This document shows positions 17,479 to 32,343 of a stretch of DNA of 64,000 nt, in pieces. The translations under genes and the position numbers were made by a program. Source of the stretch: an uncultured Acidimicrobiales bacterium (lineage in GTDB: Bacteria; Actinomycetota; Acidimicrobiia; Acidimicrobiales; SZUA-35); contig CAVRSZ010000008.1 in NCBI GenBank assembly GCA_963723995.1, positions 462,555 to 526,554 of the forward strand, written 5' to 3'. Position 1 is the first letter of the stretch, and each line of letters opens with the position of its first letter. Under the pieces are notes generated by a model. That model did not search any database, was not told the DNA's origin, and saw only the letters and a list, made by a program, of their open reading frames with translations.

Positions 17479-17485
17479 GGACCGG

Positions 17486-18757: not shown

Positions 18758-19371
18758 TCCCGACCCTCCAACTGATTGAGGGTTGCGACCGCGGCCGAAG
18801 CGGCGGCCTGCACATCGCTTTCGGTTCCACTGATGAACAGGCGGCCGAATCGCCCGACGGCCCGCACCTCGATCAGACGGATGTCGGCCGCCTTCTCCGC
18901 TTCGTTGGCAGCCAACGCGACGTAGGCGGCAGGCGCCACCTCCAGGATGTAGAGACTCGAGCCTGGTATCAACAGGTTGCCTTTGCGCCACTTGTTGATG
19001 AGCTGGGCCTGGTACGGATCGACATTGGTGATGAACTGCGATCCGGCGACCTGCGGCTTCACCCGGTCAGCTTCGGTCAGGCCCAGGTGTTCCAGCACCG
19101 CTGCTCCAGCGGCCAGAACCTCGGCCTGGCCACGGGCGTGGATCTCGAGCAGCCCGAATTCCCGCTCCACGATCTGCAAAGCAGGGCGGACGTCGGCCGC
19201 CTTGAGCGCGATGTCAGAGCAGCGGAAGATTTCGTTGCCGGGAGCGGCCTCGATGAACAACTCTGCCATCCCGGCCACCGGCACGTCACCCTGACACGTG
19301 GCAGCCACATGGGCCGCAGCTTGGGGCTGCATGCGGTCCACAAAGGCATAGGTGCGAAGTTGGAAGTCCAT
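18754..19371 (-). CDS. tandem BMC-domain shell protein (BMC-T type)
   Basis: 205 aa; LRTYAFVDRMQPQ... is a permuted-BMC style N-terminus. Two BMC-like halves are present (..DIALKAADV.., ..ANEAEKAADIRLIEV..). Its start shares a base with the EutJ stop. Confidence 0.7.
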   Translation of the reverse strand: MDFQLRTYAFVDRMQPQAAAHVAATCQGDVPVAGMAELFIEAAPGNEIFRCSDIALKAADVRPALQIVEREFGLLEIHARGQAEVLAAGAAVLEHLGLTEADRVKPQVAGSQFITNVDPYQAQLINKWRKGNLLIPGSSLYILEVAPAAYVALAANEAEKAADIRLIEVRAVGRFGRLFISGTESDVQAAASAAVATLNQLEGRE

Positions 19372-20156
19372 CAGCGTTCTCCAGTGGCGTGTCCGGGGCT
19401 CTGCTGTCCAGGCGACCGTCGGTCCAGACTCTGGGCGATCCCGAACGGCGTGATCAGATGGGCGTTCGGATAGGAGAGGGTCCGCCATCCAAGTCGATCG
19501 GCCACAATCCGATCGGCGCCGCCCAGCAACAGTGCACCACCGGCCAGGTGCACGGGACCAGGATTTGTACCACCACACTGGGAACGAATCGACTCGGCGA
19601 TCCGCTCGATCCCCGGGGTCAAGATGGCCACGTACGATTCGCCTTCGGTGCGCTTGGCCCGCTCCGCATCCTCGATCGACATGCCAAGGGCCCCGGCCAG
19701 AATCAGATCGAGGTAATGGCCGCCCCCGGCCCGATCGGTCAGCGACGTCAACTCACCGTTCCGGTAGACCCCCACTCCGGTCGACCCCCCACCAACGTCG
19801 ACGACGGCCCCGTCGATCACGCCAAGGACGACCTGGGCGGCCGAGATCTCGTCGGTCACACCGCGACAGTCGATACCGGCCTGCTCCACCACATAACGAC
19901 ACGCCCGTCGGTCGGCCACCGGAACTCCCGGCGGGGCTGCCGTGGCGGCATCGGTGACCTCAACGCCCAACGCGACCTCAGCCTCGTTGACCAGCGCTTG
20001 AGCGGTTGCCGCGGCAGCGGCGAAATCGACAACGACCCCGTCGCGCACAGCCTGAACCGATCGAGCGTCCCACCACACCGGTTCACCGACGGCATCGACG
20101 GCGCACAGGACGATGGACGCCGTCCCGAGGTCGAGGCCGAATCGCAGGTCGCCCAT
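19371..20156 (-). CDS. eutJ: EutJ-like actin/Hsp70-fold ATPase
   Basis: FGLDLGTASIV..., VVDVGGGSTGV..., LAGGALLLGG, the classic ASKHA phosphate and adenosine motifs, at ~260 aa as for EutJ. Confidence 0.8.
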   Translation of the reverse strand: MGDLRFGLDLGTASIVLCAVDAVGEPVWWDARSVQAVRDGVVVDFAAAAATAQALVNEAEVALGVEVTDAATAAPPGVPVADRRACRYVVEQAGIDCRGVTDEISAAQVVLGVIDGAVVDVGGGSTGVGVYRNGELTSLTDRAGGGHYLDLILAGALGMSIEDAERAKRTEGESYVAILTPGIERIAESIRSQCGGTNPGPVHLAGGALLLGGADRIVADRLGWRTLSYPNAHLITPFGIAQSLDRRSPGQQSPGHATGER

Positions 20157-20254
20157 CCAGGTATCCGGTGGGCAACGGTGACGATCACCGGCCCGTGACA
20201 GGAAGGCGTCGACGTCGCCCGTCCGCAGGGCGCAGGGTTCGCAGTCGAGGTTGA

Positions 20255-21679
20255 TCACATCCCCATCCCCGGCTTGTAGAGGTCCCGCCAGGGCCGGTTG
20301 GCGTGGGCCACCCGTTTGATGTTGATGAGGTGCAGAGGGGTAACGTTGTCGGACACAATCGAACCACTCCATGTTCCGGTCCCCAGCATGAACGACGCGT
20401 CCGTCCCGGCCGTGTACCCCATACCACCGAACAGGCTCGGCGTGTTGATCACGATGCGGGAGGCGGGCAGTCCGGCGACCTGGGCCACGACCTGGGGATC
20501 GGCGGCGTGAAGGCCGACCGTGTGGCCCTCACCGCCGAAGCGCAGCACCTCCAGGCACTTGGCCACTCCGGCGCCCACGTCGGGCGTGCGATAGAACGAC
20601 AGGACAGGCCCCAGAATCTCGGCTGAGAGCGGCTCATGGGGGCCGACGTCGGTCAACTCGGCGGCCAGCACTCTTGTGTCGGTGGGCACGGTGACTCCGA
20701 TGCGGCGGGCCAACTCGACCGCGCTTTGACCGACGTGGTCGGGATGGTTGGCTCCGGAATCGGTGAACAACAGCCTGGCCAGGCGTTCCTGGGCCGGGCC
20801 GTCGAGGAAGAACGTGCCGTGATCGGCGAAGGCGGTGATGGCGGTCCTGGCGATGGGTTCGTCGAGCACCACAGACTGTTCGGCGACACACGCCGTGCCG
20901 TTGTCGAAGGCCTTGGATGTCACGACCATCAACGCCGCCTCGGCGACGTCGGCCACAGACCGGTGTATGTATACCGGAACATTGCCGGCACCGACTGCCA
21001 GTGTCGGCTTTCCCGACGAGTAGGCGGCCCGAACCATGCCGGCTCCCCCGGTGGCCATGACCAGAGCCGTATGCCGGTGGGCCATGAGCTCACTGGTCGC
21101 GGTGAGGGTCACCCGGGACAGGCAGCTGACGAGACCCTCCGGCGCACCCGCTCGTTCGGCGGCATCGGCCATCACCTCGACCGTTCTGACGCAGCAGCGT
21201 GCGGCACGGGGGTGGGGGGCGCAGACGATGGCATTGCCGGATTTCACTGCAGCCAGGCACTTGAAAATCGTGGTCGACGTAGGATTGGTGACCGGGATGA
21301 TGCCGGCGATGACGCCCATTGGTGCACCGACTGCGGTGACCCGGCGGGCTTCGTCGACCCAGAGCACGCCCAGCGTCCGCATGGATTCCATCGACCTGGC
21401 CACCACCGTGGAGTTGTAGAGGTTCTTCAGGATCTTGTCCTCGTACACGCCGTAGCCGGTTTCCTCGGCGGCGAGCTTCGCCAGCTCATCCGCAGCATCG
21501 GACGCGGCTGCCGCCATGGCCGCGACCAGGTGGTCGGCGGTTTCCTGGGAGACACCTTGGAACTGATCGAAGGCCCGGTGGGCTCGGCCGACCAGCGTGC
21601 GTGCCTCGGCGATGGAGTCGAGTTCGATGTCCTCGTAGCGCGAGACGTGATGCTGCGTGACTCGCTGGGTGTTCGTCAT
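20255..21679 (-). CDS. CoA-acylating aldehyde dehydrogenase (EutE/PduP type)
   Basis: 474 aa; IIPVTNPTST, FDNGTACVAEQS (catalytic Cys) and GGEGHT motifs. Confidence 0.85.
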   Translation of the reverse strand: MTNTQRVTQHHVSRYEDIELDSIAEARTLVGRAHRAFDQFQGVSQETADHLVAAMAAAASDAADELAKLAAEETGYGVYEDKILKNLYNSTVVARSMESMRTLGVLWVDEARRVTAVGAPMGVIAGIIPVTNPTSTTIFKCLAAVKSGNAIVCAPHPRAARCCVRTVEVMADAAERAGAPEGLVSCLSRVTLTATSELMAHRHTALVMATGGAGMVRAAYSSGKPTLAVGAGNVPVYIHRSVADVAEAALMVVTSKAFDNGTACVAEQSVVLDEPIARTAITAFADHGTFFLDGPAQERLARLLFTDSGANHPDHVGQSAVELARRIGVTVPTDTRVLAAELTDVGPHEPLSAEILGPVLSFYRTPDVGAGVAKCLEVLRFGGEGHTVGLHAADPQVVAQVAGLPASRIVINTPSLFGGMGYTAGTDASFMLGTGTWSGSIVSDNVTPLHLINIKRVAHANRPWRDLYKPGMGM

Positions 21680-21761: not shown

Positions 21762-22058
21762 TCAATCCCGACCCAGGACGACGCTTTCGACCTCGTCATG
21801 GGGCCTCGGTATGACGTGGACCGACACGATCTCGCCGACTTTGCCGGCCGCCGCAGTGCCGGCATCGGTGGCCGCCTTCACCGCTCCGACATCACCGCGC
21901 ACCATGACGGTTACGAGTCCGCCACCGATCTGCTCGCGTCCGATGAGGTGGACGTTGGCCGCCTTGACCATGGCGTCGGCGGCCTCGATGGCCGCCACCA
22001 ATCCACGGGTTTCGATGAGGCCGAGCGCACCTCTGTTGCCATCCGGCGTTGCTGCCAT
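21762..22058 (-). CDS. BMC-H hexameric shell protein
   Basis: [26 protein letters not shown]...[17 protein letters not shown]...HVIPRPH canonical BMC domain; the ATG at 22058 was chosen within the 169-aa ORF. Confidence 0.9.
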
Positions 22059-22122
22059 GGTCTTGCGTCTCCTTGTTCGTTGAGCGGTTGTCTGGTTCTG
22101 ATCGCTCGCCGCCTTGTCGACG

Positions 22123-22438
22123 TCACTCCTTGAAGTACGTGACGTGGCCGTCGAACGTGACCGAATCGACGATCCCGACGACGGCGGCATCGGTCGGTAC
22201 GCCGATGCCACCGGTATCGATCCGGGCTGCGCTCCCCCTGGTGACCACGACGATCTCGTCGGCCCCGGCACCGGCCAGGTCGACGGCGATGTAGCAGTCG
22301 CCGGACGCGCTCGTCGCTCGACCCGTCGGTCTCGAGACGAGTCGGATGCAGGTCTTCAACCAGGAGGAGCTTGTGGCTGGACAGCTTGTCGGCCTTGATC
22401 GAACTGACCACATTGCCTCGAACTCGTGCCAGCTTCAT
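22123..22438 (-). CDS. BMC-P (EutN/CcmL-type) pentameric vertex protein; frame disrupted near 22299-22321
   Basis: The N-terminus [28 protein letters not shown] is in one frame and the C-terminus [25 protein letters not shown]...VVGIVDSV is in another. The span is 316 nt, not a multiple of 3. Confidence 0.75.
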
Positions 22439-22506
22439 CCGAACCCCCGGTCCTGCGTTTCACCCAAACGTAAGACAGGCGTTCAGGGGATTCACTATCT
22501 CACCGA

Positions 22507-22531
22507 GACAACAAACCGATGATTTGTTGTC
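22507..22531. promoter_or_regulatory. perfect 9-bp inverted repeat in the divergent BMC promoter region (operator candidate)
   Basis: GACAACAAA-CCGATGA-TTTGTTGTC, centred in the 182-bp intergenic region between the two divergent BMC operons. Confidence 0.5.
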
Positions 22532-22620
22532 CCCCACGGCGCTGGATCACCTTGGCCGATCGTTCTTATCGTTGGTCAACGGATCTCACCGATTGAACCA
22601 GAAGCGATTAGGGGGCTCAT

Positions 22621-23652
22621 GTGATTCAGGACGTGGATGCTGAATTCCATCCGGCGGAGGACGATCCTACCTGGGCCGAGACGAACTACTTCGGCTTCTT
22701 CAACGCCGAACACCATCTCAACGTCGGGGTGTATGCCCTGTTTCGGCCCAATCTCGGCATCGTCGGTTCGACGGTCTGTATCAACAGCGGTCGCTGTGTG
22801 ACGCCGTGGGAGTCCGATTTCTCCGATCTACGCTCATCGCTGCCTATTCCGGAGCCACGCAGCCTCCTCGACTATCGCCTGCTGAACAGCTTGCATGTGC
22901 GGTGTACCGATCCAAATCAGACCTGGCTCATCCACTACGACGACGGCGAGGGAACGGCTATCGACGTCACCTGGGACGCACTGATGCCGGCGTTCGACAT
23001 TCACGATCCGGGAATGGATCCCATGTGTGCCAAGGCGACCGAGGCCACGGATGCCGGCAAGTTCGCGTGGGGCACCGCCTACAACGGGCACTTCGACCAG
23101 ACCGGCCGAGTTCGGGGAACCGTGTCGGTTCGTGGGACGTCGCACGCCATCGATTGTGTCTCGACCATGGATCACTCCTGGGGCCCCCGCCCCGAACGGG
23201 GCAAACCCAATATGAGCTGGCTCCACGCCCACTTCTCCGAGGATCTTTCGATGCACGCCATCTTCGGGTTCGACCCGATGCGCAATGGCACCGAACTGTG
23301 GCTGGCCCACGGCTACGTACTCGACAGGGGAACGGTGCACGGGCTCAAGGCGGGAACCGGCACGGTGGAGCGTCACCAGGAGCGCTATCCCGAGTCGGTC
23401 GAGTTGCGCGTCACCGACTCGAGCGATCGAGACTTCACCCTGAAAGGTCAGGCACTTACCACGTTTCCCTGGCAATGCTGGCCCAACATGGTGGCCTTCA
23501 ACTCGCTGGCGGAATGGACCATCGACGGGCCGGACGGAGCAGATCGGGCCGGTACCGGTCACGGCGAGATCATGGACTTCTTCGAGGTCCCGCAGTTGAC
23601 CCTTCTCAACAGCAATCCCGGGACCGCCCGGCCTTCACGGCCCCGGGGGTAG
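22621..23652 (+). CDS. hypothetical protein (343 aa), first gene of the plus-strand BMC-associated operon
   Basis: GTG start preceded by AGGGGG, with good GC3. It is Trp/His-rich and looks beta-rich (..WAETNYFGFF.., ..DHSWGPRP..). No family was recognised with confidence. Confidence 0.6.
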   Translation: MIQDVDAEFHPAEDDPTWAETNYFGFFNAEHHLNVGVYALFRPNLGIVGSTVCINSGRCVTPWESDFSDLRSSLPIPEPRSLLDYRLLNSLHVRCTDPNQTWLIHYDDGEGTAIDVTWDALMPAFDIHDPGMDPMCAKATEATDAGKFAWGTAYNGHFDQTGRVRGTVSVRGTSHAIDCVSTMDHSWGPRPERGKPNMSWLHAHFSEDLSMHAIFGFDPMRNGTELWLAHGYVLDRGTVHGLKAGTGTVERHQERYPESVELRVTDSSDRDFTLKGQALTTFPWQCWPNMVAFNSLAEWTIDGPDGADRAGTGHGEIMDFFEVPQLTLLNSNPGTARPSRPRG

Positions 23653-23654
23653 CG

Positions 23655-24662
23655 ATGCCCAGAGGCGCCATCCTGTTCGACTTCGACGGAACCCTGGTCG
23701 ACACCCGCCAGGCATCGTGGGAGTTGTTCGCCGAGACCAACGAACTGTTCGGGCTCGGGGTGGACAGCCGCGATGCCTTCTTCCGGATCTTCCGGAACAA
23801 CTTCCACGAGTCGTTCGAGGCGCTGAGCTCGGATGCCGATCACATTCGACAGGCCAAGCAGCACTTCATGACGGCGCTGACCGAGCGGTACCGGCCCAGC
23901 CTCATCCCTGGCATCGTCGACGTCATCCGGGCACTCACGCCGAGCTACACCCTGGCCGTGGTGTCGTCCAACGCCATGCCGGTCATCCGCCGGGTACTGG
24001 AGGGCGCCGGGCTGGCCACCTGCTTCTCCCACGTCTTCTCCGGTGATGTGGAGCCGAGCAAAAGTGCCGTGATCAAGCGCTTCATGGCCGATCAGAGCTA
24101 CGCCTCGCTCCGCCACTGCGCACCCAGCTACGTCGACACGCCCAGGCCCCGTCTGGTGGATGACGCCGTTTTCATCGTCACCGACACCGTTGGCGACGTC
24201 GAAGAGGCGCGACGGGTCGGCATTCGAGCCGTCGGGGTGTGCTGGGGCATGCACGACGAGGCGAGCCTCCGGGCGGCCGGAGCCGAGACGGTCATGGTCT
24301 GGCCCCAGGAGCTCGAGGCCTTCTTCGTCGGGGCACAGGACGAGGTCCCCGATACGTGCCGCCTCGGACCCACCCCGGCCTCGCCGGCCGACGCCGAATC
24401 GGACTCCGGCGCCGATGACAGCTGCACCACCGGCGTCTGCCGATGCCACACGGCCGGTGGCCAGGGCGAGTCGTCCCCCCGGCGGGCCGAGGTCCGATCA
24501 GCGGTTCGTCTACGGGCCCGCCTGGCCGCACCGATGGCCACGCCGCTGACGCCGCCGGTCGAGGTTCCGGTTCGCCTTGGGCCGGGCACCGAAGTGGGCC
24601 ATAACCGTCCAGCCATTGACCCCGAGCTGCTGGAGGCCCTTCGCCTCACCGCGGTTCCGTGA
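23655..24662 (+). CDS. HAD-superfamily phosphatase with a ~110-aa C-terminal tail
   Basis: ILFDFDGTLVDT (DxDGT), VVSSN and TDTVGDVEEA motifs. The tail is low-complexity and ends in the amphipathic IDPELLEALRL. Confidence 0.75.
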   Translation: MPRGAILFDFDGTLVDTRQASWELFAETNELFGLGVDSRDAFFRIFRNNFHESFEALSSDADHIRQAKQHFMTALTERYRPSLIPGIVDVIRALTPSYTLAVVSSNAMPVIRRVLEGAGLATCFSHVFSGDVEPSKSAVIKRFMADQSYASLRHCAPSYVDTPRPRLVDDAVFIVTDTVGDVEEARRVGIRAVGVCWGMHDEASLRAAGAETVMVWPQELEAFFVGAQDEVPDTCRLGPTPASPADAESDSGADDSCTTGVCRCHTAGGQGESSPRRAEVRSAVRLRARLAAPMATPLTPPVEVPVRLGPGTEVGHNRPAIDPELLEALRLTAVP

Positions 24663-24758: not shown

Positions 24759-25175
24759 ATGACATTCATAGCCGAAGGTTTCAACAGCTTCGAGACGGAC
24801 AAGGTGCCGGAAGGAACGATCGTCTTCCTACCCGACCCGAAGTCGGTCATCGACTTGATCAATTCGGGCGAACTCGACAAGCACATCGTGCTGGCCCAGG
24901 GAGGGACGACCACGTTTCTCTCGCCAGTGCTCAGCATGGGCTGCATCGGGGTGATCACCCTCTCCGGAGCACCCGAGTCGCACCTCGGCATTCTCTCCCG
25001 GGAGTTCCAGATTCCGTGCGTGATGACGGCATACCTGACCGAGAGCGACTCCCGCTACGAAACCGGCGGCGACAACGCCGCCCACTTCGACGCCATGATC
25101 TCAACCCTCAACGGCAAGCGGGCGCGACTCCATTGCAGCGACAGCGAAATCGGCCGAATCGAACTGATCGATTAG
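24759..25175 (+). CDS. stand-alone PEP-utilising-enzyme mobile (swivelling phosphohistidine) domain protein
   Basis: 138 aa; ...GVITLSGAPESHLGILSREFQIPCV matches the GG.TSH.AI.ARE.GIP pattern around the phosphocarrier His. Confidence 0.7.
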   Translation: MTFIAEGFNSFETDKVPEGTIVFLPDPKSVIDLINSGELDKHIVLAQGGTTTFLSPVLSMGCIGVITLSGAPESHLGILSREFQIPCVMTAYLTESDSRYETGGDNAAHFDAMISTLNGKRARLHCSDSEIGRIELID

Positions 25176-25192
25176 AAGGGGCAAACAGAATC

Positions 25193-26602
25193 ATGGCAAA
25201 TTACACCAAGCGATACGAGGAAAACGACGAAGGGCTCCGCTTCCAGGACCTCCAGTACGTCGGAAACTTCAAGGACCTTCCGCCGGTGCCGGACGGTATT
25301 CTCGGCGACCGGATGATGCGGCAACGAGCCAAGTCCAAGGTACTGGAAAGGGTCTCACACGAAGATGTGCTCAAGGACCAGTTCACCATTGACGAGCTGA
25401 ACGATCTCAACAACTACCTGGCGTGGAACATCTGGGACGTGCTGGTCATGCGTGCCACCGAGGGCGAGTCGGGCATGATCCCCCGCCAGCAGTACGAGAT
25501 TCTCGCCTTCATGAACGAGTTCTATCGTTGGCCGGAGATTTTTCAGATGGCGACCGACGAAGTGGGAGCCCAGGGCATCATCGACATCGGCGCCAGCGCC
25601 CGCCGGGAGATTGGGACCAAGGTCAACTGTGTGCACGATTGGTGCATCGGTGCCGTCGGTTTCGGCATGGGCCGCTGCGGTCTCTTGGCGCTCGAAGTCA
25701 TCGAGCCCGACGACTACATCGCCGAGAGCAACACCATCCTCAAGTTCATGCAGCGGGTGCTGTGGGGCAAGCGCCAGGACGGTTACATCCTCAACTCGCA
25801 GGACCGGTACCGCTGCCAGATCCACGAGGACGACTTCCTCCAGCCGCTCATCGACCAGATGGAGCACTTCGAAAAGGGCAGCCCCGCCCACGACGAGTTC
25901 ATGCGGTTCAACGCCACCGCCGAACTACTGTCGTTCCTCGATCACTACGACTGCCGCCTCGGTCTCGGTGACACCGGACCCTATCCGCTGCCCAACGGCA
26001 ACATCCTCATTGTCCGGGACCTGTTCACCAACGAGGAGGTCTACCACTGGAGCGACGTCTGCGACCACGAGAACGTGCCCCACTGTTACAGCTTGCTGCT
26101 GGAAATCGACGCCGAGGCCATGGGGCTTGACGAGATCCGGGTGAATGACATCTCGACCACGTTCACCCGGCCCAAGAACTACATCCCGTTCGTGCGGTCC
26201 GGAGCCGTCTTCGTTCGGGAGAAGTGGAACACCCCGATGTCGGAGGTGTACCAGGTGCCGATCAGCGACCTGGGTGACCATCTCACCCGGGTCCAGAACG
26301 CGACCTTCAAGCTCTACTCCAAGACGTCGAAGATGAGTCGGCGCCAGCTCATCACCAACGGCCTGTACGTGTACTACATCGACATGATTCTGCCCCACCT
26401 CCGATTGGCCGGCGTCTATGAGAAGGCCTGCCAGGATCTGAATTTCTGGGAGATCGACCGGCGGGTGTCCAATTACTACTACGAAATCGACAAGCGTGGA
26501 TTCGCCCAGGAGACCGTGCCGATGAAGATCTTCTCCGGCGCGGGCTACCTGCCGTTCTCGGACGGGGCCCGCCTCACCCGGTCGAAGTATTTCCATACAT
26601 GA
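25193..26602 (+). CDS. hypothetical protein (469 aa), no recognisable family, lower GC than its neighbours
   Basis: The ATG at 25193 has a spacer to the previous gene. The sequence is non-repetitive and rich in Tyr, Trp, Cys and His, and its stop overlaps the next start (ATGA). Confidence 0.65.
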   Translation: MANYTKRYEENDEGLRFQDLQYVGNFKDLPPVPDGILGDRMMRQRAKSKVLERVSHEDVLKDQFTIDELNDLNNYLAWNIWDVLVMRATEGESGMIPRQQYEILAFMNEFYRWPEIFQMATDEVGAQGIIDIGASARREIGTKVNCVHDWCIGAVGFGMGRCGLLALEVIEPDDYIAESNTILKFMQRVLWGKRQDGYILNSQDRYRCQIHEDDFLQPLIDQMEHFEKGSPAHDEFMRFNATAELLSFLDHYDCRLGLGDTGPYPLPNGNILIVRDLFTNEEVYHWSDVCDHENVPHCYSLLLEIDAEAMGLDEIRVNDISTTFTRPKNYIPFVRSGAVFVREKWNTPMSEVYQVPISDLGDHLTRVQNATFKLYSKTSKMSRRQLITNGLYVYYIDMILPHLRLAGVYEKACQDLNFWEIDRRVSNYYYEIDKRGFAQETVPMKIFSGAGYLPFSDGARLTRSKYFHT

Positions 26603-27168
26603 TCGACGACACCGAATTCGCCGTTCTCAACGCCCTTCACCTCAAACGGATGGCGACGGTGGCCGATGTGGCGGCGATCACCGGGTTGTCGACAACCACT
26701 GCCGAGTCGGTGGTCGACCGAGCCTCCTTCGATGGTCTGGTCGCCCCGACTCCGGCAGGGGTCATGCTCATGCCGGAGGGCACCGAGGCGGTGCTGGCCT
26801 ACTACAACGAGCGGTACGGCGAGCATCGTGGCGATCCCGCCCTGGAGAGGTGGTACGAGCGGTTCGAGGAACTGAACACCGGGTTCATCGCCGAGATCTC
26901 GGAGTGGCAGAAGTCGGGTCACGACGCGAACGTGTTGGAACGAGCGATTCGATTCGTCGAGCGGCTCACCCGCATGATCGAGGACCTGGTGCCGGACATC
27001 CACCGGTATCAACGGTACGTGGAGCGATTCAACCAGTCGATCGAGCTGGTCGACGCCGGTGAGACGGACTACGTCACCAAGCCGACAAAGGACTCACTGC
27101 ACAACATCTGGTTCGAGTTCCATGAGGACATTCTCTCCGTGCTCGGGAGGCCGAGGGACACGACCTGA
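26599..27168 (+). CDS. hypothetical protein (189 aa) with a possible N-terminal winged-helix domain
   Basis: FAVLNALHLKRMATVADVAAITGLSTTTAESVVDRASFDGLV resembles a MarR-like wHTH; the remainder is helical. Confidence 0.5.
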   Translation: MIDDTEFAVLNALHLKRMATVADVAAITGLSTTTAESVVDRASFDGLVAPTPAGVMLMPEGTEAVLAYYNERYGEHRGDPALERWYERFEELNTGFIAEISEWQKSGHDANVLERAIRFVERLTRMIEDLVPDIHRYQRYVERFNQSIELVDAGETDYVTKPTKDSLHNIWFEFHEDILSVLGRPRDTT

Positions 27169-27177
27169 CGGAGAATC

Positions 27178-29661
27178 ATGACATCGTCCAGAGCACCTAC
27201 CGTCTTTCAAATCGATGAGGTCGACGGCACGGACAGCGCTCGGTTCGGGGGCAAGGGTGCCGGGCTGGCCCGTATGACCGCCGCCGCGCTCTCCGTACCC
27301 CCTGCCTTCGTGATCAGCACCGACGGCTTTCGCCGGTGGAGCGAAGGCGATGGCGGGATTCCGGCATCGCTTGATGCCGAGATCCGCGGGGCGATGGCCG
27401 AACTGGAGCGTCGATCGGGGCGAACCTTCGCCGACTCCGGTGGTCTGCCACTGCTGGTCTCGGTTCGCTCCGGGGCTGAAATCAGCATGCCCGGGATGAT
27501 GGACACCGTCTTGAACGTCGGCATCACCGGCGCCAGCGCCCACGCCCTGGCCGACGCCACCGGCCGACCGGCGTTTGCCTGTGACACCCTCATCCGCTTC
27601 TGGCATATGTACACCGAAATCGTGCTCGGTGACGAGCTGCCGGTGTCGACTCTGGCGGAAGCGGCAGCGGTCCAAGCTCGGTGCAATCCGACCGTCAACG
27701 CCTTTGTCGCACTCGAAGCTGCGCTCGTGGCCCAACTCACCGAGCGGGGTCACGACATCCAGGGCGGGGCCGTCGACCGCCTGATGGCGACCGTGCTGGC
27801 GGTGTTCGAGTCATGGAACAACCGTCGGGCTCGCACCTACCGGCGCCACCACGGTATCCCCGATGACCTTGGGACTGCCGTCGTCGTCCAGGCCATGGTC
27901 TATGGCAACCTCAATGACAGGTCCGGGTCGGGCGTGGCCTTCTCCCGAGATCCCAACACCGGCGCAGCTGCGGTGTACGGCGAGTACCTCACCGGTCGAC
28001 AGGGCGAGGACATCGTCTCCGGGTCGGAGACCCCTGTTCCCCTCGACGATCCCCGGGGACTGGGCGAGGAGCTGCGATCGGAGCTGCTCGACGTGGCTCG
28101 AACGTTGGAGCAGATGTACCGTGACGCCGTCGATATCGAGTTCACCGTCGAAGACGGTCGCCTGTACCTGCTCCAGGTTCGGCCCGCCAAACGGACCGCC
28201 GAGGCCGCAGTCCAGATCGCCCTCAGTGTCATCGAGGAAGGCACCGTCGAACCGGTAGAGGGGCTTCGACTCGTTCAAACCGAGCAGCTGGTCAACGCCC
28301 TACGCCCCGTCTTCGCTCCCGATGCGGTTGCCACCGCCACGCTGCTGGCCGACGGTGTCGCCTCCTCGCCCGGCAGCGCGGTCGGCGAGGCTGTGCTCGA
28401 TGCAGATCGAGTGGTGGCCAGAAGCAGCGACGGGGTGGCGGTCATCCTGCTCCGTCCCATCACCAGCCCGCTCGACATTCAGGGCATGTTGGCCGCCGAG
28501 GCCATTGTCACCGCCCGAGGAGGCGCGCTGAGTCACGCTGCGGTGGTGTCCAGGGCGCTCGACAAGCCTTGCGTGGTCGGTTGTAGTGCCATCACGGTCA
28601 ACCCTGAGCAGGGCTGGTTTGAGATTGGCGGCAGGCGCTATGAGGAAGGCACCGTTATCTCGGTCGACGGCTGGGCCGGCCATGTCTACGAGGGCGCGTT
28701 GCCCCATCAGGCCTCGCGGGGCGAGACGGAGTCGGTTGCCCGCCTGCTGTCGATCGCCGACCAGGTTTCAGGCTGTGACTACTGGTTCGCCTCCTGGCCG
28801 CCAAGCGGTGACACGCCGCTTCCACCGGCGACGGGAGTCGGACCCCTGCCGCTGACCGATCTCGTCATCAATGTCGGCCTCCTTGATGAGCTCGTGGCCG
28901 AGATCGACCGTTTCACCGACGACTCACAGCAGATCGAAGCCCGAGAACGGCTGCGCGATATCGCTGCGCAGGCCACCGCCCAAGTCCTGGAATCGGCCGT
29001 CGGCATGGACGTCCACATCCGGCTCCCCCACCTCGGGTCCCCCCGCGCCCAACGGCTCATCAGTGACTGGACCGGAATGGCCCCCCAGCTGCTGTTGCCC
29101 ATGGGAATGCCGGCGCTTCAGCAGGCCCTTGTTTCCGGCATCGCGTCGGCCGCCGACGAACACCCGCCGAGTTCGCTGTGCGTGCTCATCGCCGGCGTCA
29201 CGGCACCCGGGGAACTGGCCGCCTTCGCCGAACTCGCACGCGGGGTCAGGGACGATCTCGCCGTCGGGGCGGTCGTCGGCAGTCTTGCCGGACTGGAGTC
29301 GGTGATCGACATGACCAGAGCAGGGCATCCGGTGTGGCTCGACATGATCGAACTGATCCGCTCATTCCACGGTTTCCCGAGCGCTCTCACGCTGGCCGGC
29401 GATGTGCTCGGGGCCTACGTCGAAGCCGAGATGTTGAAGTCCAACCCCCTGACGGTGCTGCCGCCGTCGCTGAGTCGAGGATTGGCCGATGCGCTCGTCG
29501 AAGAGCCGGCCGCTCGTGGTATCGGCCTAATCCAGGCGACCAGGCTTTCACCGGACATCGTGATCGAGCTGCGCTCGGCCGGCCTCGCGGTCCTCTCCCT
29601 GGATCCGGAGAGAGCCGGTGCTGTGCGACTCCTGTTGGGCCAGGCGGGCGGCGATGGGTGA
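27178..29661 (+). CDS. pyruvate phosphate dikinase-like enzyme: intact ATP-grasp N-domain and phosphohistidine domain, divergent C-terminal domain
   Basis: [54 protein letters not shown] and [25 protein letters not shown]-terminal residues ~505-827 lack the RTEHMF-type and C-terminal Cys motifs I expect in PPDK. Confidence 0.75.
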
Positions 29662-29947
29662 ATCGATCGGTACCGCGCTCGGTCTGGTCGAGACCAGAGG
29701 CATGGCCGCAGCCATCGAAGCGGCCGATGCCATGGTCAAGTCGGCGAACGTCAGGCTCGTCACCAAACAGCGCCCCGGCGGTGGCATCATCACCATCATC
29801 GTCCGTGGAGACGTGGGGGCGGTGCAGGCGGCGGTGGATGCAGGCGTTGCCGCTGCATCATCGGTCGGGCAGGTCCTGGCCGCCAAAGTCATTCCTCGCC
29901 CGGCTGATGAGATCGACGGCATTCTGCGGCGCCCCCCGGTTCGGTAG
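29654..29947 (+). CDS. BMC-H hexameric shell protein (second copy)
   Basis: [26 protein letters not shown]...[17 protein letters not shown]...VIPRP. Its ATG overlaps the end of the PPDK-like gene by 8 nt. Confidence 0.9.
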
Positions 29948-30045: not shown

Positions 30046-32343
30046 GTGACGTCAGGTCGAGCCCGCCAGCGGAATCGGACGGGTGTTGATGCCATTCCAG
30101 GTGCGGATGTTTCGCCGGTGAATCGATCGCAACCGGCGGATGTCGCCTCGCTGATCGCCGAGCTGGATTGGTCGTCCGACACGGGCCAGCGGGCGGCCAA
30201 GCGGATTGCCGAGCTGGTTGCGATGGTCGCCGGCGTGGCCGCCGCCGTTGTAGCCCTCGACGGTGACCGCTGGCGATTGGTGGCGCAGGATGGACTGCCG
30301 CGGCCCGCCACCTGGACCAACGGCAGCGATCTGTCCGAAATGAAGGACCTGTGCACTGTCGAGGCGGTCGAGGCCGCTCTGCCCCTGCGGGCCGACACGA
30401 TTGCCGGGATCAACGAGATCGCCATCGGCGGCGTTTCCGCGATTCTGATGGCCCCGGACCTCGGCCCGGACGGCGTCGTGATTGTCGGTGACCCGGGCCC
30501 TCACCGTCCGTTCATCGAGCTTGTGAATTCGGCGGTGGCGAGCATACGGCTACGGAGGGAACTGAACGCGCGGTTGGCCGGTCTTTCCGAGGAACAGATC
30601 GAGATCACCCGGCTGCTGGCCATTCGTGACGTCGATCAGCTCTTGCTGTCGACGGTCAACACAGCCAACCGGTTGATCGACGGTGACATGGCCGGCGTGA
30701 TGCTCGTTGATCGAGACGATCTTGTGATGGAGTGCTGTGTCGGTAATCGTAGTCGGCGCACCGAGCAGCTGCGCTTCTCCAAGGGCCAAGGCGTCGCCGG
30801 CTTGGTGATGGAACGGGGTGAACCATGTAAGGTCGACGACTATTTGCAGAGCCGTGTTATCACCCACCACTTTGATTCGCTGGCCCGGATCGAGGAAACG
30901 AAATCGGCGTTGGCCGCACCGTTGGTGGTGGAGGCCAAGACCATCGGTGTCCTCGAAGTCTGGCGGCGGCGGCCTTCGGTGTTCAGTGAGGCCAACGTTC
31001 GCCAGCTGGTGACGCTGGCCAACCTGGCCGCGATCGCCATCGACAATGCCAGGCTGCACGCCCTCAAGGCGGACAGTCTCGAGCGCCTGGCCCTGACAAC
31101 GGAGTCGCTCAGCCGCCAGCTCAGCACGATCGAGCAGGCCCGCTCCACCCAGACGACGCTGAGTCAATTGCTGCTCCAGGGCGAGGGAGTCGGCTCGATA
31201 TGCCGGGCCATTGCCTCCAAGCTCGACGCCGAGGTGGCACTGCTGTCATCCGAGCTCCAGGTGATGAGCAGGTGGCCTCAAGACCTGGATGTCGACGACG
31301 TCGTGGCCCGGCTCCGCGCCCTCCCCGGTGTTGATCGCCCCGGCGCCGAGCAGCTGAGCGTGCAGTTGGAGCCTGGCCGGTGGCTGGCCGCCCAGGCGGT
31401 CCGGGCGGGTTCCGATCATCTCGGCTGGTTCTGTGTGGTGCTTGCCGACGAGCCCCAGATCGGCGAAGACCTGGTGATCGGCGAGGCCGTCACGGTGACC
31501 GCCCTGTGCCAAATCATGGAGCGGACGGCCGAGGCGGCCCGGTCCGGTGAGCGGGAGTCCCTGGTCTGGAACCTTATCGAGGGGCCGATTGCTCAGCGTC
31601 GTGCCGCCGTCGATCGAGCCCGTTGGCTTCGCGTCGACCTCAGCCGGCGACGTCGACTTGTTCGAGGTGAGATCGTACCCAGCTATCCGTCGCGTCGGGT
31701 GACCTGGGACGAAGCCGAGTACGAGCGGGCGCGTCAGCGGGTACTGGCAAAGGTTCGGAGCGCGGCCATGACGCTCGGTGTGGGCGAACTGGTGGCCATC
31801 CGGGGCAATGACCTGGCTCTCATTGTGCCCGATCGTGATCTGCCGACCCTGCGTGACATGGTGGCGCAACTCGATGAGGCGGCCGCCAGTGTGCTGTCGG
31901 GCCACAGCGTGGCCTGGGGTGTCAGCAACCCCTGCAGCAACCTACTTGAACTCGACAGGGCCAACGACGAGGCGATCTCCGCTGTCCGGGCCGCTGTTCG
32001 GCTCGGTTTGGACCATACTGCGATGTATCAGGATCTCGGCGTCGTCCGACTCATCGTGTCGGACGACGATGGCGATCTTCGCCAGTTTCTCCACGACATC
32101 ATCGGTCCCCTGCTCGAGCACGACGCGGAACGCAACAGTGAACTCGTCGACACCCTTCGGGCCTACTTCGTCACCGACTACTCCCACCAGCACGCGGCAA
32201 ACCTGCTCCACATCCACCACAAGACGTTCGGATACCGGCTGGCCAAGATCGAGTCACTCACCGGCCTTGACATGCGCAGCCACGACGGCCGCATGCGGGC
32301 CGACCTCGCCCTCAAGCTGCACGACGTTGCCAACGGTCCGTAG
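30046..32343 (+). CDS. GAF-domain / PucR-family transcriptional regulator
   Basis: 765 aa. It has a GAF-like block (..GVAGLVMERGEPCKVDDY..LAAPLVVEAKTIGVLEVWR..) and a C-terminal PucR HTH (LVDTLRAYF....AANLLHIHHKTFGYRLAKIESLTG). Confidence 0.75.
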   Translation: MTSGRARQRNRTGVDAIPGADVSPVNRSQPADVASLIAELDWSSDTGQRAAKRIAELVAMVAGVAAAVVALDGDRWRLVAQDGLPRPATWTNGSDLSEMKDLCTVEAVEAALPLRADTIAGINEIAIGGVSAILMAPDLGPDGVVIVGDPGPHRPFIELVNSAVASIRLRRELNARLAGLSEEQIEITRLLAIRDVDQLLLSTVNTANRLIDGDMAGVMLVDRDDLVMECCVGNRSRRTEQLRFSKGQGVAGLVMERGEPCKVDDYLQSRVITHHFDSLARIEETKSALAAPLVVEAKTIGVLEVWRRRPSVFSEANVRQLVTLANLAAIAIDNARLHALKADSLERLALTTESLSRQLSTIEQARSTQTTLSQLLLQGEGVGSICRAIASKLDAEVALLSSELQVMSRWPQDLDVDDVVARLRALPGVDRPGAEQLSVQLEPGRWLAAQAVRAGSDHLGWFCVVLADEPQIGEDLVIGEAVTVTALCQIMERTAEAARSGERESLVWNLIEGPIAQRRAAVDRARWLRVDLSRRRRLVRGEIVPSYPSRRVTWDEAEYERARQRVLAKVRSAAMTLGVGELVAIRGNDLALIVPDRDLPTLRDMVAQLDEAAASVLSGHSVAWGVSNPCSNLLELDRANDEAISAVRAAVRLGLDHTAMYQDLGVVRLIVSDDDGDLRQFLHDIIGPLLEHDAERNSELVDTLRAYFVTDYSHQHAANLLHIHHKTFGYRLAKIESLTGLDMRSHDGRMRADLALKLHDVANGP

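Follow-up and report, generated by a model that had tools for sequence, protein, structure and literature searches.

The window analysed here, a stretch of 64,000 nucleotides from an uncultured Acidimicrobiales bacterium, encodes an 827-aa protein that resembles pyruvate, phosphate dikinase (PPDK) together with a separate, free swivel domain. The question raised by this locus is what such a system would phosphorylate, if not pyruvate. Domain content, catalytic-residue loss, gene fusion, synteny and the tail of a HAD phosphatase form the basis on which we propose, as a fairly probable reading, that the genes for the 138-, 469-, 189- and 827-aa proteins encode a split, PPDK-derived small-molecule dikinase.

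Gene content of the locus and extent of the module

The four open reading frames were confirmed where an earlier note on this DNA had placed them, all on the + strand. The 469 and 189 genes overlap by 4 nt (start of the 189 ORF, stop of the 469 ORF), and the whole set is tightly packed. The genes and parts considered are the following:

16363..17637, -, Zn-dependent alcohol dehydrogenase (PF08240 and PF00107; ORF as listed, the real start probably further downstream)
17486..18991, -, malate/lactate-dehydrogenase-like protein whose Ldh_1_N and Ldh_1_C domains (aa 195-499) follow a long N-terminal extension
18754..19578, -, BMC-T shell protein, CsoS1D-like double type (PF00936 match)
19371..20372, -, EutJ/MreB/FtsA-like ATPase-fold protein (weak PilM_2, FtsA and MreB_Mbl matches)
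20255..21679, -, acylating (EutE-type) aldehyde dehydrogenase (PF00171)
21762..22271, -, BMC-H shell protein (PF00936, E 9e-30, aa 82-157; the real start probably internal to the listed ORF)
22129..22438, -, BMC-P (EutN/CcmL) pentamer gene, divided between two reading frames (PF03319)
22621..23652, +, DUF7065/DUF7064 (Rv3169-family) protein, first gene of the + strand module (PF23212 and PF23213)
23655..24662, +, HAD-IA phosphatase with motif I DFDGT, a C-terminal linker of ~115 aa and an amphipathic helix (HAD_2, E 4e-18)
24759..25175, +, stand-alone swivel domain, 138 aa (PF00391)
25193..26602, +, 469-aa protein, candidate acceptor-binding or catalytic domain (conserved; no Pfam, NCBIfam or PDB match)
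26599..27168, +, 189-aa winged-helix and helical-bundle protein, putatively accessory to the acceptor unit (weak HTH and MarR_2 matches)
27178..29661, +, 827-aa PPDK paralog, whole gene (PF01326 and PF00391)
27178..28212, +, its ATP-grasp (PPDK_N) part (PF01326, E 1.8e-44)
28213..28719, +, its linker and own swivel domain (PF00391, E 3e-19)
28720..29661, +, its degenerate PEP-utilizers_C-like barrel (family profile against PPDK barrels)
29618..29947, +, second BMC-H shell protein (PF00936, E 6e-29; likely start 29654, overlapping the 3' end of the 827-aa gene)
30046..32343, +, GAF-GGDEF_2-PucR transcriptional regulator (Pfam matches)

Co-occurrence was counted beside the 469-aa gene, with loci having enough flank as denominators and 43 loci having full flanks on both sides. 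A swivel gene adjoins the 469-aa gene in 74/75 loci, a 189 gene in 69/73 and a PPDK-like gene in 53/60, and among the 43 full-flank loci DUF7064 and HAD genes accompany it in 40 and 39, respectively. Gene order across genomes thus indicates a module of six genes (DUF7065/7064, HAD, 138, 469, 189 and 827) present in ~75 genomes. In this regard, the four-gene unit of the earlier note holds as far as it goes, but its boundary was too narrow, as the upstream DUF7065/7064 and HAD genes belong to it. No PPDK-like match was found in 7 of the 60 loci with enough flank, and four of the full-flank loci lack one (L019, L029, L039 and L048); a Rieske oxygenase gene, and not a PPDK-like gene, lies 3' of the acceptor genes in L029, L039, L048 and L033. 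In the DUF7065/DUF7064 family, for which no PDB relative was found, 49 alignment columns are invariant, often with His, Asp or Trp, and the member encoded here is probably an enzyme.

The 827-aa protein as a PPDK paralog

Sequence comparison identifies the 827-aa protein as a PPDK paralog with a predicted intact ATP-grasp and phospho-His swivel. Besides the Pfam matches listed above, residues 5-528 of Clostridium symbiosum PPDK align to its residues 9-527 (E 2e-113). The near-canonical N-terminal motifs and the phosphocarrier His already seen in the letters alone proved invariant in 46 relatives, both at the ATP-grasp nucleotide site and in the swivel motif GG[AS][TL]SHAAVV[SA]RA, which contains His453 (codon 28534-28536; 46/46).

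Beyond about residue 530, nothing aligns to the C. symbiosum enzyme. PF02896 (PEP-utilizers_C) was not found by the Pfam search, the C-terminus of the window protein matching no Pfam model even at E<=10, and this model is touched by the C-termini of only 2/25 relatives. A profile built from 25 family C-termini, however, matches the barrels of PPDK (E 3e-15 to 1e-10) and of PTS enzyme I (E 2e-5), which indicates that the C-terminal ~310 residues form a genuine, if degenerate, PEP/pyruvate barrel. Its catalytic positions were scored across the 46 relatives:

Arg of RTEH: A/R/G/S/P/N in the family, P558 in the window
Glu of MIEIPR: Q/T/S in the family, G701 in the window
Asn and Asp of GTNDL: Asn variable and Asp E/A/R in the family, I724 and E725 in the window
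Cys of VSCSP: V/L/T/A in the family, with Cys in 1/46, L808 in the window
Arg of VTIRLLD: invariant in the family, R615 in the window

The HMMER alignment is close to the one made by eye in the earlier note, which had set an 11-residue segment against GIGLCRTEH and AVLSLDP against YVSCSP, so that the RTEH-type and Cys residues are absent from the window protein and had not been misaligned. Among the relatives, identity to the window protein is 27% in the barrel vs 49% in the N-terminal parts, an evolution about twice as fast. In a distant family in which the acceptor proteins are fused, the partner protein is of 546 aa and consists of PPDK_N and swivel (PEP-utilizers) without a barrel. Because its catalytic positions are lost family-wide and the barrel evolves fast and is missing from this partner, catalysis of the PEP/pyruvate half-reaction appears unlikely, in agreement with what had been supposed from the window alone.

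These findings bear on the simplest alternative, namely that the 827-aa protein is an ordinary PPDK and its neighbours are unrelated to it. The protein does pass the NCBIfam model NF004531 'pyruvate, phosphate dikinase' (504 bits vs a cutoff of 456), its N-terminal 520 residues align well to the C. symbiosum enzyme, and the Arg equivalent to that of VTIRLLD is invariant. NF004531, however, has 534 positions and covers no barrel, whereas the full-length PPDK model TIGR01828 is matched only at positions 4-527 of 865, with 484.8 bits vs a cutoff of 843. Together with the missing PF02896 match, the family-wide replacement of catalytic residues (RTEH Arg, MIEIPR Glu, GTNDL Asn/Asp, VSCSP Cys), the strict synteny with the swivel, 469 and 189 genes and the barrel-less partner of the fused family, this makes an ordinary PPDK highly improbable.

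The proteins of the acceptor side

The 138-aa protein matches PF00391, the mobile/swivel domain, with 27.8 bits (cutoff 23.1), which confirms the second swivel recognized previously three genes upstream of the 827-aa gene. Its motif GAPESHLGILSR, containing the candidate carrier His75 (codon 24981-24983), is present in 53/55 orthologs. The swivel is fused to a 469-like domain in P0130, P0135, P0141, P0147 and P0282; two of these chains, P0130 (777 aa) and P0282 (794 aa), comprise swivel, 469-like and C-terminal 189-like parts (E 4e-17 for the last), and Gordonia locus L081 is a further case supporting natural fusion of the three. Since the three proteins are one fused polypeptide in other bacteria, their assignment as the acceptor half of a split dikinase is strongly supported, and so is the acceptor-side role that the earlier note had given to the 469- and 189-aa proteins.

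Within the module, conservation is highest in the 469-aa protein: homologs are 56-92% identical across 76 loci that include Actinomycetota and Pseudomonadota, and identity across phyla amounts to 66-93%. At 28 positions its family is invariant, with many Asp, Glu, Lys, His and Arg among them, and the protein has the appearance of a conserved, enzyme-like domain. Pfam, NCBIfam and PDB searches gave no relative, and a Foldseek search of the PDB with its confident AF2 model (pLDDT 93.4, pTM 0.93) returned no structural neighbour (best match E 0.45, TM <=0.13). Although nearly invariant, the loop 85-102 (TEGESGMIPRQEYE) is modelled with the lowest confidence. This loop would fit a protein target, for instance shell or cargo, with the 469-aa protein as target or adaptor; but modules free of shell genes exist as well, and the phosphatase, dehydrogenases and ligase conserved alongside speak for a metabolite pathway, which leaves a protein target very doubtful indeed.

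The 189-aa protein gives weak HTH and MarR_2 matches in Pfam. A model of the natural fusion (pTM 0.64, domain docking not reliable) gives non-significant matches (E 0.3-1.3) to winged-helix domains of MarR, IclR and O-methyltransferase N-termini. The 189-aa protein could thus bind DNA, although the N-terminal domains of small-molecule O-methyltransferases serve dimerization, not DNA binding. Through this winged helix, the 138-, 469- and 189-aa proteins might constitute a regulatory phosphorelay of the PTS-Ntr or DhaM type, a notion in line with PtsP enzyme I as best NCBIfam match of the swivel and with the adjacent GAF-PucR regulator. We regard it as quite unlikely, given that the 469-aa protein is so conserved and carries enzyme-like invariant charged residues, that the genes lie inside a catabolic operon between HAD and dikinase, that the locus already has a dedicated regulator and that the structural matches include O-methyltransferase domains. 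Moreover, the 469-aa and DUF7064 proteins are each present as three paralogs in genome L064, as is typical of enzymes specific for a substrate.

In its mode of action the proposed system would resemble PpsAB, CreHI and HpeHI, split dikinases in which an ATP-grasp acting in trans and a swivel His phosphorylate small molecules (PMC12167813); conversion of 3-hydroxypyridine likewise requires a gene pair of similar kind (bioRxiv 10.1101/2020.01.08.898148). The likeness to phenylphosphate synthase and rifampicin phosphotransferase drawn in the earlier note therefore stands for the mechanism but not for subfamily membership. The proposed dikinase falls outside the subfamily of PpsAB, CreHI, HpeHI and rifampicin phosphotransferase: its ATP-grasp protein is a genuine PPDK paralog and has retained a swivel of its own, and the rifampicin-binding domain is unrelated to its acceptor domain. 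Nothing in the analysis points to the carboxylase also considered earlier. To our knowledge, the known split dikinases need only one swivel His, whereas two are kept here, and we know of no precedent for a His-to-His step in this family.

Microcompartment setting and proposed pathway

The module sits, as it usually does, inside a bacterial microcompartment (BMC) locus of the MIC1 type. Shell genes occur in 33/43 full-flank loci, and the non-BMC loci have instead Zn-ADH, AMP-forming ligase and AldDH genes, which connects the module with the metabolism of aldehydes. In BMC loci such as L003 and L083, the Zn-dependent alcohol dehydrogenase is syntenic, the BMC-T orthologs carry CsoS1D_N plus BMC domains, and the second BMC-H keeps its position, as in many further loci. 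With the L083 ortholog, tblastn places aa 1-41 of the BMC-P in frame -2 and aa 40-98 in frame -3. The acylating aldehyde dehydrogenase scores 483 bits against the acetylating model TIGR02518, under its cutoff of 620, and the malate/lactate-dehydrogenase-like protein is above that of the malate dehydrogenase subfamily model NF004863 (308 vs 283 bits). A homolog of the PucR-type regulator lies downstream of the module also in non-BMC loci of Xanthobacter, Methylocella and Allosphingosinicella. The earlier note's account did not include the BMC setting.

MIC1 has been described without a signature enzyme, with a 'MreB-like protein' among its listed components (PMC4207490). In the portion covered, the BMC-type supplement of the 2021 catalog does not have MIC1 among its types, and it reports an N-terminal domain comparable to that of the malate/lactate-dehydrogenase-like protein in MIC1 members (PMC8217296).

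The HAD tail past the core measures 83-151 aa in 31 BMC-linked loci vs 10-51 aa in 17/18 non-BMC loci, and ends in the motif (D/E)ELLxA(L/M)RR(I/L); its amphipathic helix in the window, IDPELLEALRLTAVP, is a putative encapsulation peptide. A HAD tail with such a helix is confined to BMC loci. In these loci the dikinase proteins are not extended. Similarity of the HAD to generic phosphoglycolate/PPi phosphatases is weak, and its role could be the removal of PPi or of a by-product.

The PPDK reaction is reversible and glycolytic in some organisms. A catabolic enol or acyl phosphate could, accordingly, charge the swivel at the 469-aa domain, and the PPDK-like half, its ATP-grasp and swivel chemistry being intact, would form ATP from AMP and PPi or Pi. 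Such a system would stand in for two enzymes missing from MIC1, phosphotransacylase and acyl kinase; for the former, absence from MIC1 loci has been described (PMC4207490). We consider this direction unlikely, since shell-less modules adjoin an ATP-consuming AMP-forming acyl-CoA ligase, the phosphate ester would be wasted by the HAD phosphatase that is conserved with the module, and no CoA-binding or acyl-transfer domain was detected with Pfam or NCBIfam. On thermodynamic grounds, moreover, only donors of the enol-phosphate class are energetic enough.

For the ATP-consuming dikinase that we favor, we infer which way the phosphoryl group flows, its transfer from His to His, what the DUF7065/7064 and HAD proteins do and the kind of substrate. 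The 827-aa protein would bind ATP in its ATP-grasp and load the phosphoryl group onto His453, His75 or both in relay, its degenerate barrel being a scaffold or docking remnant that would no longer make PEP. From the swivel, the phosphoryl group would then pass to a small substrate other than pyruvate, bound by the 469-aa domain together with the 189-aa protein, and the DUF7065/7064 enzyme would probably transform the phosphorylated intermediate. Dephosphorylation by the putatively shell-targeted HAD phosphatase may yield an aldehyde, or an alcohol that is oxidised to the aldehyde, which the acylating aldehyde dehydrogenase would turn into acyl-CoA.

Together, our findings suggest that the module is the functional core of the MIC1-type microcompartment in this window. 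If so, the unassigned core of this cluster type would be a split dikinase with a free carrier and a conserved protein of unknown fold.

The locus and its PPDK-like protein

The six genes that make up the module (encoding the DUF7065/7064, HAD, 138-, 469-, 189- and 827-aa proteins) lie closely packed on the plus strand of a window of high GC content (~65%), separated by a divergent region of 182 bp (22439-22620) from a minus-strand set that encodes BMC-P, BMC-H, an acylating aldehyde dehydrogenase (AldDH), an EutJ/MreB-like protein, BMC-T, a malate/lactate-dehydrogenase-like protein and a Zn-alcohol dehydrogenase. Because shell and enzyme genes surround the module, the proposed split dikinase lies inside a bacterial microcompartment (BMC) locus, a setting that had gone unnoticed in the earlier note.

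Module, shell and regulator genes in the window (coordinates, strand, product)
18754-19578, minus strand: BMC-T shell protein
21762-22271, minus strand: BMC-H shell protein
22129-22438, minus strand: BMC-P (EutN/CcmL) shell protein
22621-23652, plus strand: DUF7065/DUF7064 protein, 343 aa (Pfam)
23655-24662, plus strand: HAD_2 protein, 335 aa (Pfam)
24759-25175, plus strand: PEP-utilizers mobile-domain (swivel) protein, 138 aa (Pfam)
25193-26602, plus strand: 469-aa protein, no Pfam match
26599-27168, plus strand: 189-aa protein, weak HTH Pfam matches; overlaps the stop of the 469-aa gene by 4 nt
27178-29661, plus strand: 827-aa protein, PPDK_N and PEP-utilizers mobile domain, no PEP-utilizers_C
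29618-29947, plus strand: BMC-H shell protein
30046-32343, plus strand: GAF-PucR regulator

The gene for the BMC-P pentamer is split over two frames (residues 1-41 and 40-98, with the shift near 22306-22316), which may be an error of sequencing or assembly, or else means that the shell's sole vertex protein is truly disrupted. Just past the regulator, an 868-aa ORF on the minus strand (32373-34979) resembles by eye a family-3 beta-glucosidase and probably has nothing to do with the locus.

The 827-aa protein aligns over its residues 9-527 with residues 5-528 of Clostridium symbiosum PPDK (E 2e-113), with PF01326 at E 1.8e-44 and PF00391 at E 3e-19, and no alignment extends past residue ~530. 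The ATP-grasp motifs and the swivel His453, which stands in a GGxTSHAA-type motif, are unchanged in 46/46 relatives, and both domains are clearly orthologous in fold and motifs to those of PPDK (C. symbiosum 1KBL/1DIK, plant 5JVN). The C-terminal ~310 residues were taken from the genome loci of the 46 relatives and 25 of them were aligned; the resulting profile matches plant and clostridial PPDK barrels (E 3e-15 to 1e-10) as well as PTS enzyme I barrels (2e-5), and the C-terminal domain is therefore homologous to PEP-utilizers_C. It shares a common ancestor with the PPDK barrel but has lost the key Arg, Glu, Asn/Asp and Cys.

Catalytic positions of the PPDK barrel in the window protein and in its family
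Arg of GLCRTEH: P558 in the window; A, R, G, S, P or N in the family
Glu of MIEIPR: G701 in the window; Q, T or S in the family
Asn-Asp of GTNDL: I724 and E725 in the window; variable in the family
Cys of VSCSP: L808 in the window; mostly V in the family, Cys in 1/46
Arg of VTIRLLD: R615 in the window; invariant, the sole catalytic position retained

The window's own C-terminus matched no Pfam model even at E<=10, PF02896 included, and this model was touched by the C-termini of just 2/25 relatives. Identity to relatives is 27% in the barrel versus 49% in the N-terminal two thirds, and invariant columns number nine in the barrel versus 70 and 32 in the N-terminal parts. The C-terminal barrel is highly diverged, and by barrel criteria the 827-aa protein is not a PPDK. 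A PPDK-like protein devoid of the PEP/pyruvate active site is what the earlier note had read by eye, and the HMMER alignment of the catalytic positions together with the failed PF02896 bears it out; a misalignment in that reading is ruled out by the profile alignment, the family-wide replacement of the residues and the absence of PF02896.

In this regard, the full-length PPDK equivalog TIGR01828 failed (484.8 bits against a cutoff of 843.45, covering only model positions 4-527 of 865), and NF004531 (PRK05878, 'pyruvate, phosphate dikinase') passed with 504.4 bits (cutoff 456), matched over positions 10-484 of the 534 in the model. Since NF004531 spans the ATP-grasp and swivel domains only, its name gives no proof of PEP/pyruvate activity, and since it is passed, automatic annotation will mis-name the 827-aa protein. 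The family is probably mis-named PPDK in the annotations of many genomes, which would distort metabolic reconstructions. The truncated NF004531 family, of which we take Rv1127c of Mycobacterium tuberculosis to be an example, has to our knowledge no established function; it shares the ATP-grasp and swivel architecture, as does a 546-aa PPDK_N and swivel protein without a barrel that partners a distant family of fused proteins, and the 827-aa protein corresponds to this architecture with an extra, degenerate barrel of ~310 aa.

The acceptor unit and its place among PPDK-toolkit systems

The 469-aa protein has close homologs that are 66-93% identical over their full length across Actinomycetota and Pseudomonadota (Acidimicrobiia, Pseudonocardia, Amycolatopsis, Actinomycetospora, Bradyrhizobium, Xanthobacter, Methylocella, Variovorax, Steroidobacteraceae, Pseudomonas), all of them annotated as hypothetical. 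Its neighbours in the same loci are far less alike (the PPDK-like protein at 36-51%, the 189-aa protein at 31-54% and neighbours overall mostly at 31-60%), with the exception of one near-identical Acidimicrobiia locus (73%). No Pfam, NCBIfam or PDB sequence relative of the 469-aa protein was found, either with the single sequence or with the family profile. An AF2 model built on 52 diverse homologs (pLDDT 93.4, pTM 0.93) is mostly helical with a single beta-sheet region at residues 258-355, and a Foldseek search with it against 350,542 PDB chains gave a best match of only E 0.45 and TM 0.13. Many of the 28 invariant positions are charged (among the 28 are E68, D71, D82, K143, N145, H148, R161, R275 and R404), and the loop 85-102 (TEGESGMIPRQEYE) is nearly invariant, yet it is the only low-confidence stretch of the model. 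The 469-aa protein is conserved at the level of a core-metabolism enzyme, yet it has neither a family assignment nor a structural neighbour.

A search with the 469-aa protein against 1.84 billion representative proteins returned 247 relatives only, some of which are 590-790 aa long. Four of them (P0130, P0135, P0141 and P0147) carry PF00391 at the N-terminus. In P0130, residues 10-95 resemble the 138-aa protein (53% identity, E 2e-28), residues 168-579 the 469-aa protein (37% identity) and residues 600-767 the 189-aa protein (29% identity, E 4e-17); P0282 has the same layout, and a similar fused ORF occurs in Gordonia aichiensis. Natural fusions are classical evidence that the separate 138-, 469- and 189-aa proteins act together, and we refer to these three as the acceptor unit. 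The fusions attach a phospho-His carrier straight to the 469-aa domain, which thus stands where PPDK has its PEP/pyruvate barrel and where rifampicin phosphotransferase and HpeH have their rifampicin-binding domain (PMC12167813). An AF2 model of the natural fusion P0282 reached pTM 0.64, with the swivel and linkers poorly modelled, and its 189-like part resembles the winged helix of MarR, IclR and O-methyltransferase N-termini in Foldseek matches that are non-significant (E 0.3-1.3). The free swivel carries the unusual and nearly invariant motif GAPESHLGILSR with His75, and both swivels are retained in the split and in the fused families, for which a relay from His453 to His75 is one reading. 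Unlike PPDK, the 827-aa protein is always encoded beside this extra swivel and a separate acceptor unit.

Among known systems, the arrangement resembles the split dikinases in its logic. In PpsAB, CreHI and HpeHI an ATP-grasp component acts in trans on the swivel His of a second component that holds the acceptor (PMC12167813). Split dikinases of this kind serve at the start of catabolic pathways, and rifampicin phosphotransferase is their single-chain relative (PMC12167813; PMC4844700). The genes of the module, with their free swivel and the natural fusions of swivel, 469- and 189-like parts, are compatible with such a layout, in which phosphotransfer would run in trans. The phenylphosphate synthase PpsAB has in addition a third, stimulating subunit. 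In PpsAB, CreHI, HpeHI and rifampicin phosphotransferase, however, the acceptor domain is of the rifampicin-binding fold, with the swivel at the C-terminus, whereas in the module the swivel is N-terminal or free. The 469-aa model had no Foldseek neighbour in the PDB, rifampicin phosphotransferase included, and homology to the rifampicin-binding domain was not found. The 827-aa protein matches PPDK at E 2e-113 but rifampicin phosphotransferase and 9GOJ-type (HpeI-like) chains at only ~1e-3, in a PDB sequence set that included the rifampicin phosphotransferase chains 5FBS and 5HV1; moreover, this ATP-grasp partner keeps its own invariant swivel and a relic barrel, whereas the HpeI-type component has no swivel of its own. 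The system would work like the split small-molecule dikinases but departs from them in two defining features, the acceptor fold and the type of ATP-grasp partner.

Phospho-His relays between carriers are also found in PTS enzyme I/HPr and in DhaM-DhaL-DhaK, the latter ending on the small ketol dihydroxyacetone. There the donor is PEP, used through a functional barrel; the module has instead a degenerate barrel along with an ATP-grasp domain. We read the system as a dikinase of the PPDK toolkit that combines two carriers and a relic barrel with an acceptor domain of no known class, and the 469-aa protein, as a third kind of acceptor domain in the PPDK/PEP-synthase toolkit, is a good target for structure determination.

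The module with and without shells

One scan of species-representative genomes yielded 78 loci with 469-aa homologs. Counting only contigs that reach far enough, the 469-aa gene is adjoined by the swivel gene in 74/75 loci, by the 189-aa gene in 69/73, by the PPDK-like gene in 53/60, by DUF7064 in 40/43 and by HAD in 39/43, and shell genes lie nearby in 33/43. The exact BMC layout of the window is shared by Steroidobacteraceae, Bradyrhizobium, Variovorax, Roseiarcus, Carbonactinospora and Acidimicrobiales. In shell-less loci, among them those of Pseudomonas sp. NFACC02, Xanthobacter, Methylocella silvestris TVC, Allosphingosinicella and a Rhodovulum-like MAG, the module is preceded by genes for a Zn-ADH, an AMP-forming acyl-CoA ligase and a non-acylating AldDH, and the same GAF-PucR regulator often follows it. 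Both versions thus end in the conversion of aldehyde to acyl-CoA.

The HAD protein differs between the two versions. Past its catalytic core, a tail of 83-151 aa is present in 31/31 shell-linked loci, as opposed to 10-51 aa in 17/18 shell-less loci, the lone exception being a short contig of a shell-type lineage. This tail, ~115 aa in the window, consists of a low-complexity linker followed by an amphipathic helix of the form (D/E)ELLxA(L/M)RR(I/L), reading IDPELLEALRLTAVP in the window. BMC encapsulation peptides, as defined in PMC8217296, have this same form, and the tail is a probable encapsulation peptide that would make the HAD protein lumen cargo. The dikinase proteins are equally long with and without shells. 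Motif I of the HAD protein, DFDGT, is of the phosphatase/mutase type, and its best family matches, to phosphoglycolate phosphatase and PpaX, are weak. We rejected an aldehyde-releasing HAD of the PhnX type, whose model matched only marginally, because DFDGT has the Asp+2 that is typical for phosphatases and mutases. In the DUF7065/7064 protein 49 columns are invariant, with His, Asp and Trp common among them, and it looks like an enzyme; sequence and structure searches returned no PDB relative of it.

Several loci depart from the common plan. In an Alphaproteobacteria MAG (L064; OZ252220.1, ~5-16 kb), three DUF7064 and three 469-like paralogs are found together, which suggests cognate DUF7064/469 pairs of differing specificity. 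In four loci of gammaproteobacterial MAGs (L029, L033, L039 and L048), a Rieske [2Fe-2S] oxygenase gene (PF00355 and LigXa_C) replaces the PPDK-like gene; it lies downstream of the acceptor genes, directly past the 189-aa gene where this was called, and no PPDK-like or ATP-grasp partner was found within the examined flanks. In the fused family, one contig (yNRu7kGq, JGI 3300047160) encodes SDRs, an acyl-CoA dehydrogenase and two to three APH/EcKL kinases nearby, and Gordonia aichiensis (L081) has there a single APH/EcKL kinase together with a DUF7065-like gene, an NDP-forming acyl-CoA synthetase and Zn-ADH-like ORFs; this has the appearance of a second pathway that lacks a shell and is built around this acceptor unit.

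A second, unrelated phosphatase often follows the PPDK-like gene, namely Y_phosphatase3 (PF13350) in loci of Pseudonocardia, Actinomycetospora and Variovorax (L042, L035, L020) and SurE in Carbonactinospora (L083, 14919-16310); it may be the 'phosphatase' named for MIC1 in 2014. In Pseudomonas, the module is flanked by methylcrotonyl-CoA-carboxylase-like genes, namely for a carboxyltransferase, an enoyl-CoA hydratase, a biotin carboxylase and an HMG-CoA lyase (L001/L072, 15.7-21.1 kb), and also adjoins genes for a sigma-54 activator of the MimR_N type and for a MetA-type outer-membrane channel. Carboxylase-family genes likewise flank it in Endobacter and the Rhodovulum-like MAG (L017, L077). 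As a general feature of the module, a methylcrotonyl-CoA-carboxylase neighbourhood is ruled out, being found in ~5 loci only.

Microcompartment type and a possible route

The enzyme set in the window is of the MIC1 type (AldDH, a dehydrogenase of the LDH/MDH Pfam families, a Zn-dehydrogenase, a HAD hydrolase and a MreB/EutJ-like protein), and a Pfam survey of the BMC locus returned no phosphotransacylase. Judged by its shell-gene and enzyme content, the locus appears to match the published MIC1, the 'metabolosome with an incomplete core' (Axen 2014, PMC4207490), whose members include Pseudonocardia dioxanivorans and Nakamurella multipartita (PMC4207490). The 2021 catalog holds 46 MIC1 loci and a MIC1-specific HAD_2 model (Sutter 2021, PMC8217296), and its supplement lists the HMMs H_mocha and Tdp_denim for MIC1-specific shell clades. 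Neither PPDK_N nor PEP-utilizer genes are mentioned in the accessible text of PMC4207490, PMC8217296 or their supplements, and in the literature since 2021 we found no paper on MIC1 as a metabolosome and none tying microcompartments to dikinases. MIC1 has had no assigned function since 2014, as an enzyme that generates its aldehyde could not be pointed out. We propose that the dikinase is the missing core of MIC1 microcompartments; the six-gene candidate set and the likely lumen cargo, the HAD with its tail, make the question testable. Among the culturable hosts of the module are Pseudomonas sp. NFACC02, Xanthobacter, Methylocella silvestris TVC, Bradyrhizobium, Variovorax and Actinomycetospora, and the published MIC1 hosts P. 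dioxanivorans and N. multipartita are culturable as well. Whereas the published descriptions of MIC1, as far as their accessible text goes, name no signature enzyme, the dikinase genes are here a conserved core; the dikinase genes of MIC1-type loci are also found without any shell.

In the RMM1 metabolosome, an APH-family aminopropanol kinase and a PLP-dependent phospho-lyase lead to propionaldehyde. The likeness lies in a metabolosome that phosphorylates its substrate first and releases the aldehyde next, but the APH-family kinase and the PLP-dependent lyase of RMM1 are both absent here, although APH/EcKL kinases do adjoin the distant fused family. By AldDH phylogeny, RMM1 is the characterised type nearest to MIC2, and the closest relative of MIC2 is MIC1 (PMC8217296 supplement).

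All that we say on the function of the module we infer computationally, from an intact ATP-grasp domain, two intact swivel His, a relic barrel and the acceptor unit, together with the strict synteny of DUF7065/7064 and HAD, the downstream route from aldehyde to acyl-CoA and the shell-specific HAD tail. In the proposed mechanism, ATP would load the swivel His, as in PPDK, PpsAB and HpeHI, and a small substrate other than pyruvate, on the 469-aa domain, would receive the phosphoryl group. DUF7065/7064 would convert the phosphate ester, and the encapsulated HAD would strip the phosphate inside the shell to give an aldehyde or alcohol precursor; the acylating AldDH would then produce acyl-CoA, and NAD(H) would be kept in balance by the MDH/LDH-like and Zn-dehydrogenases.

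As to the substrate, two candidates are speculative. Hemiterpene or tertiary allylic alcohols, such as 2-methyl-3-buten-2-ol and linalool, are weakly hinted at by methylcrotonyl-CoA-carboxylase-like neighbours in the few loci that have them. Acetone or acetol is put forward on a similarly weak hint, because of the hosts (Xanthobacter, Methylocella, Actinomycetospora, Pseudonocardia and Gordonia) and the MimR_N-type activator in Pseudomonas. The module genes are not mentioned in the accessible part of the Actinomycetospora 2-HIBA/acetone proteome paper, and a broader literature search for them was likewise empty.

Taken as a whole, these findings allow a reading that we put forward as rather improbable, namely that MIC1 metabolosomes have in this module their missing signature system, one that operates by a principle undescribed for microcompartments. 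A cytosolic two-swivel dikinase and an acceptor enzyme of unassigned fold would spend ATP to phosphorylate a small neutral compound that is not directly oxidisable, DUF7065/7064 would rearrange the phosphate ester, which would be the form entering the shell, and the encapsulated HAD would free the precursor of the reactive aldehyde there. If the reading is true, phosphorylation would be both the chemical activation of the substrate and its entry ticket to the organelle, along a route that would need neither B12 nor glycyl radicals.
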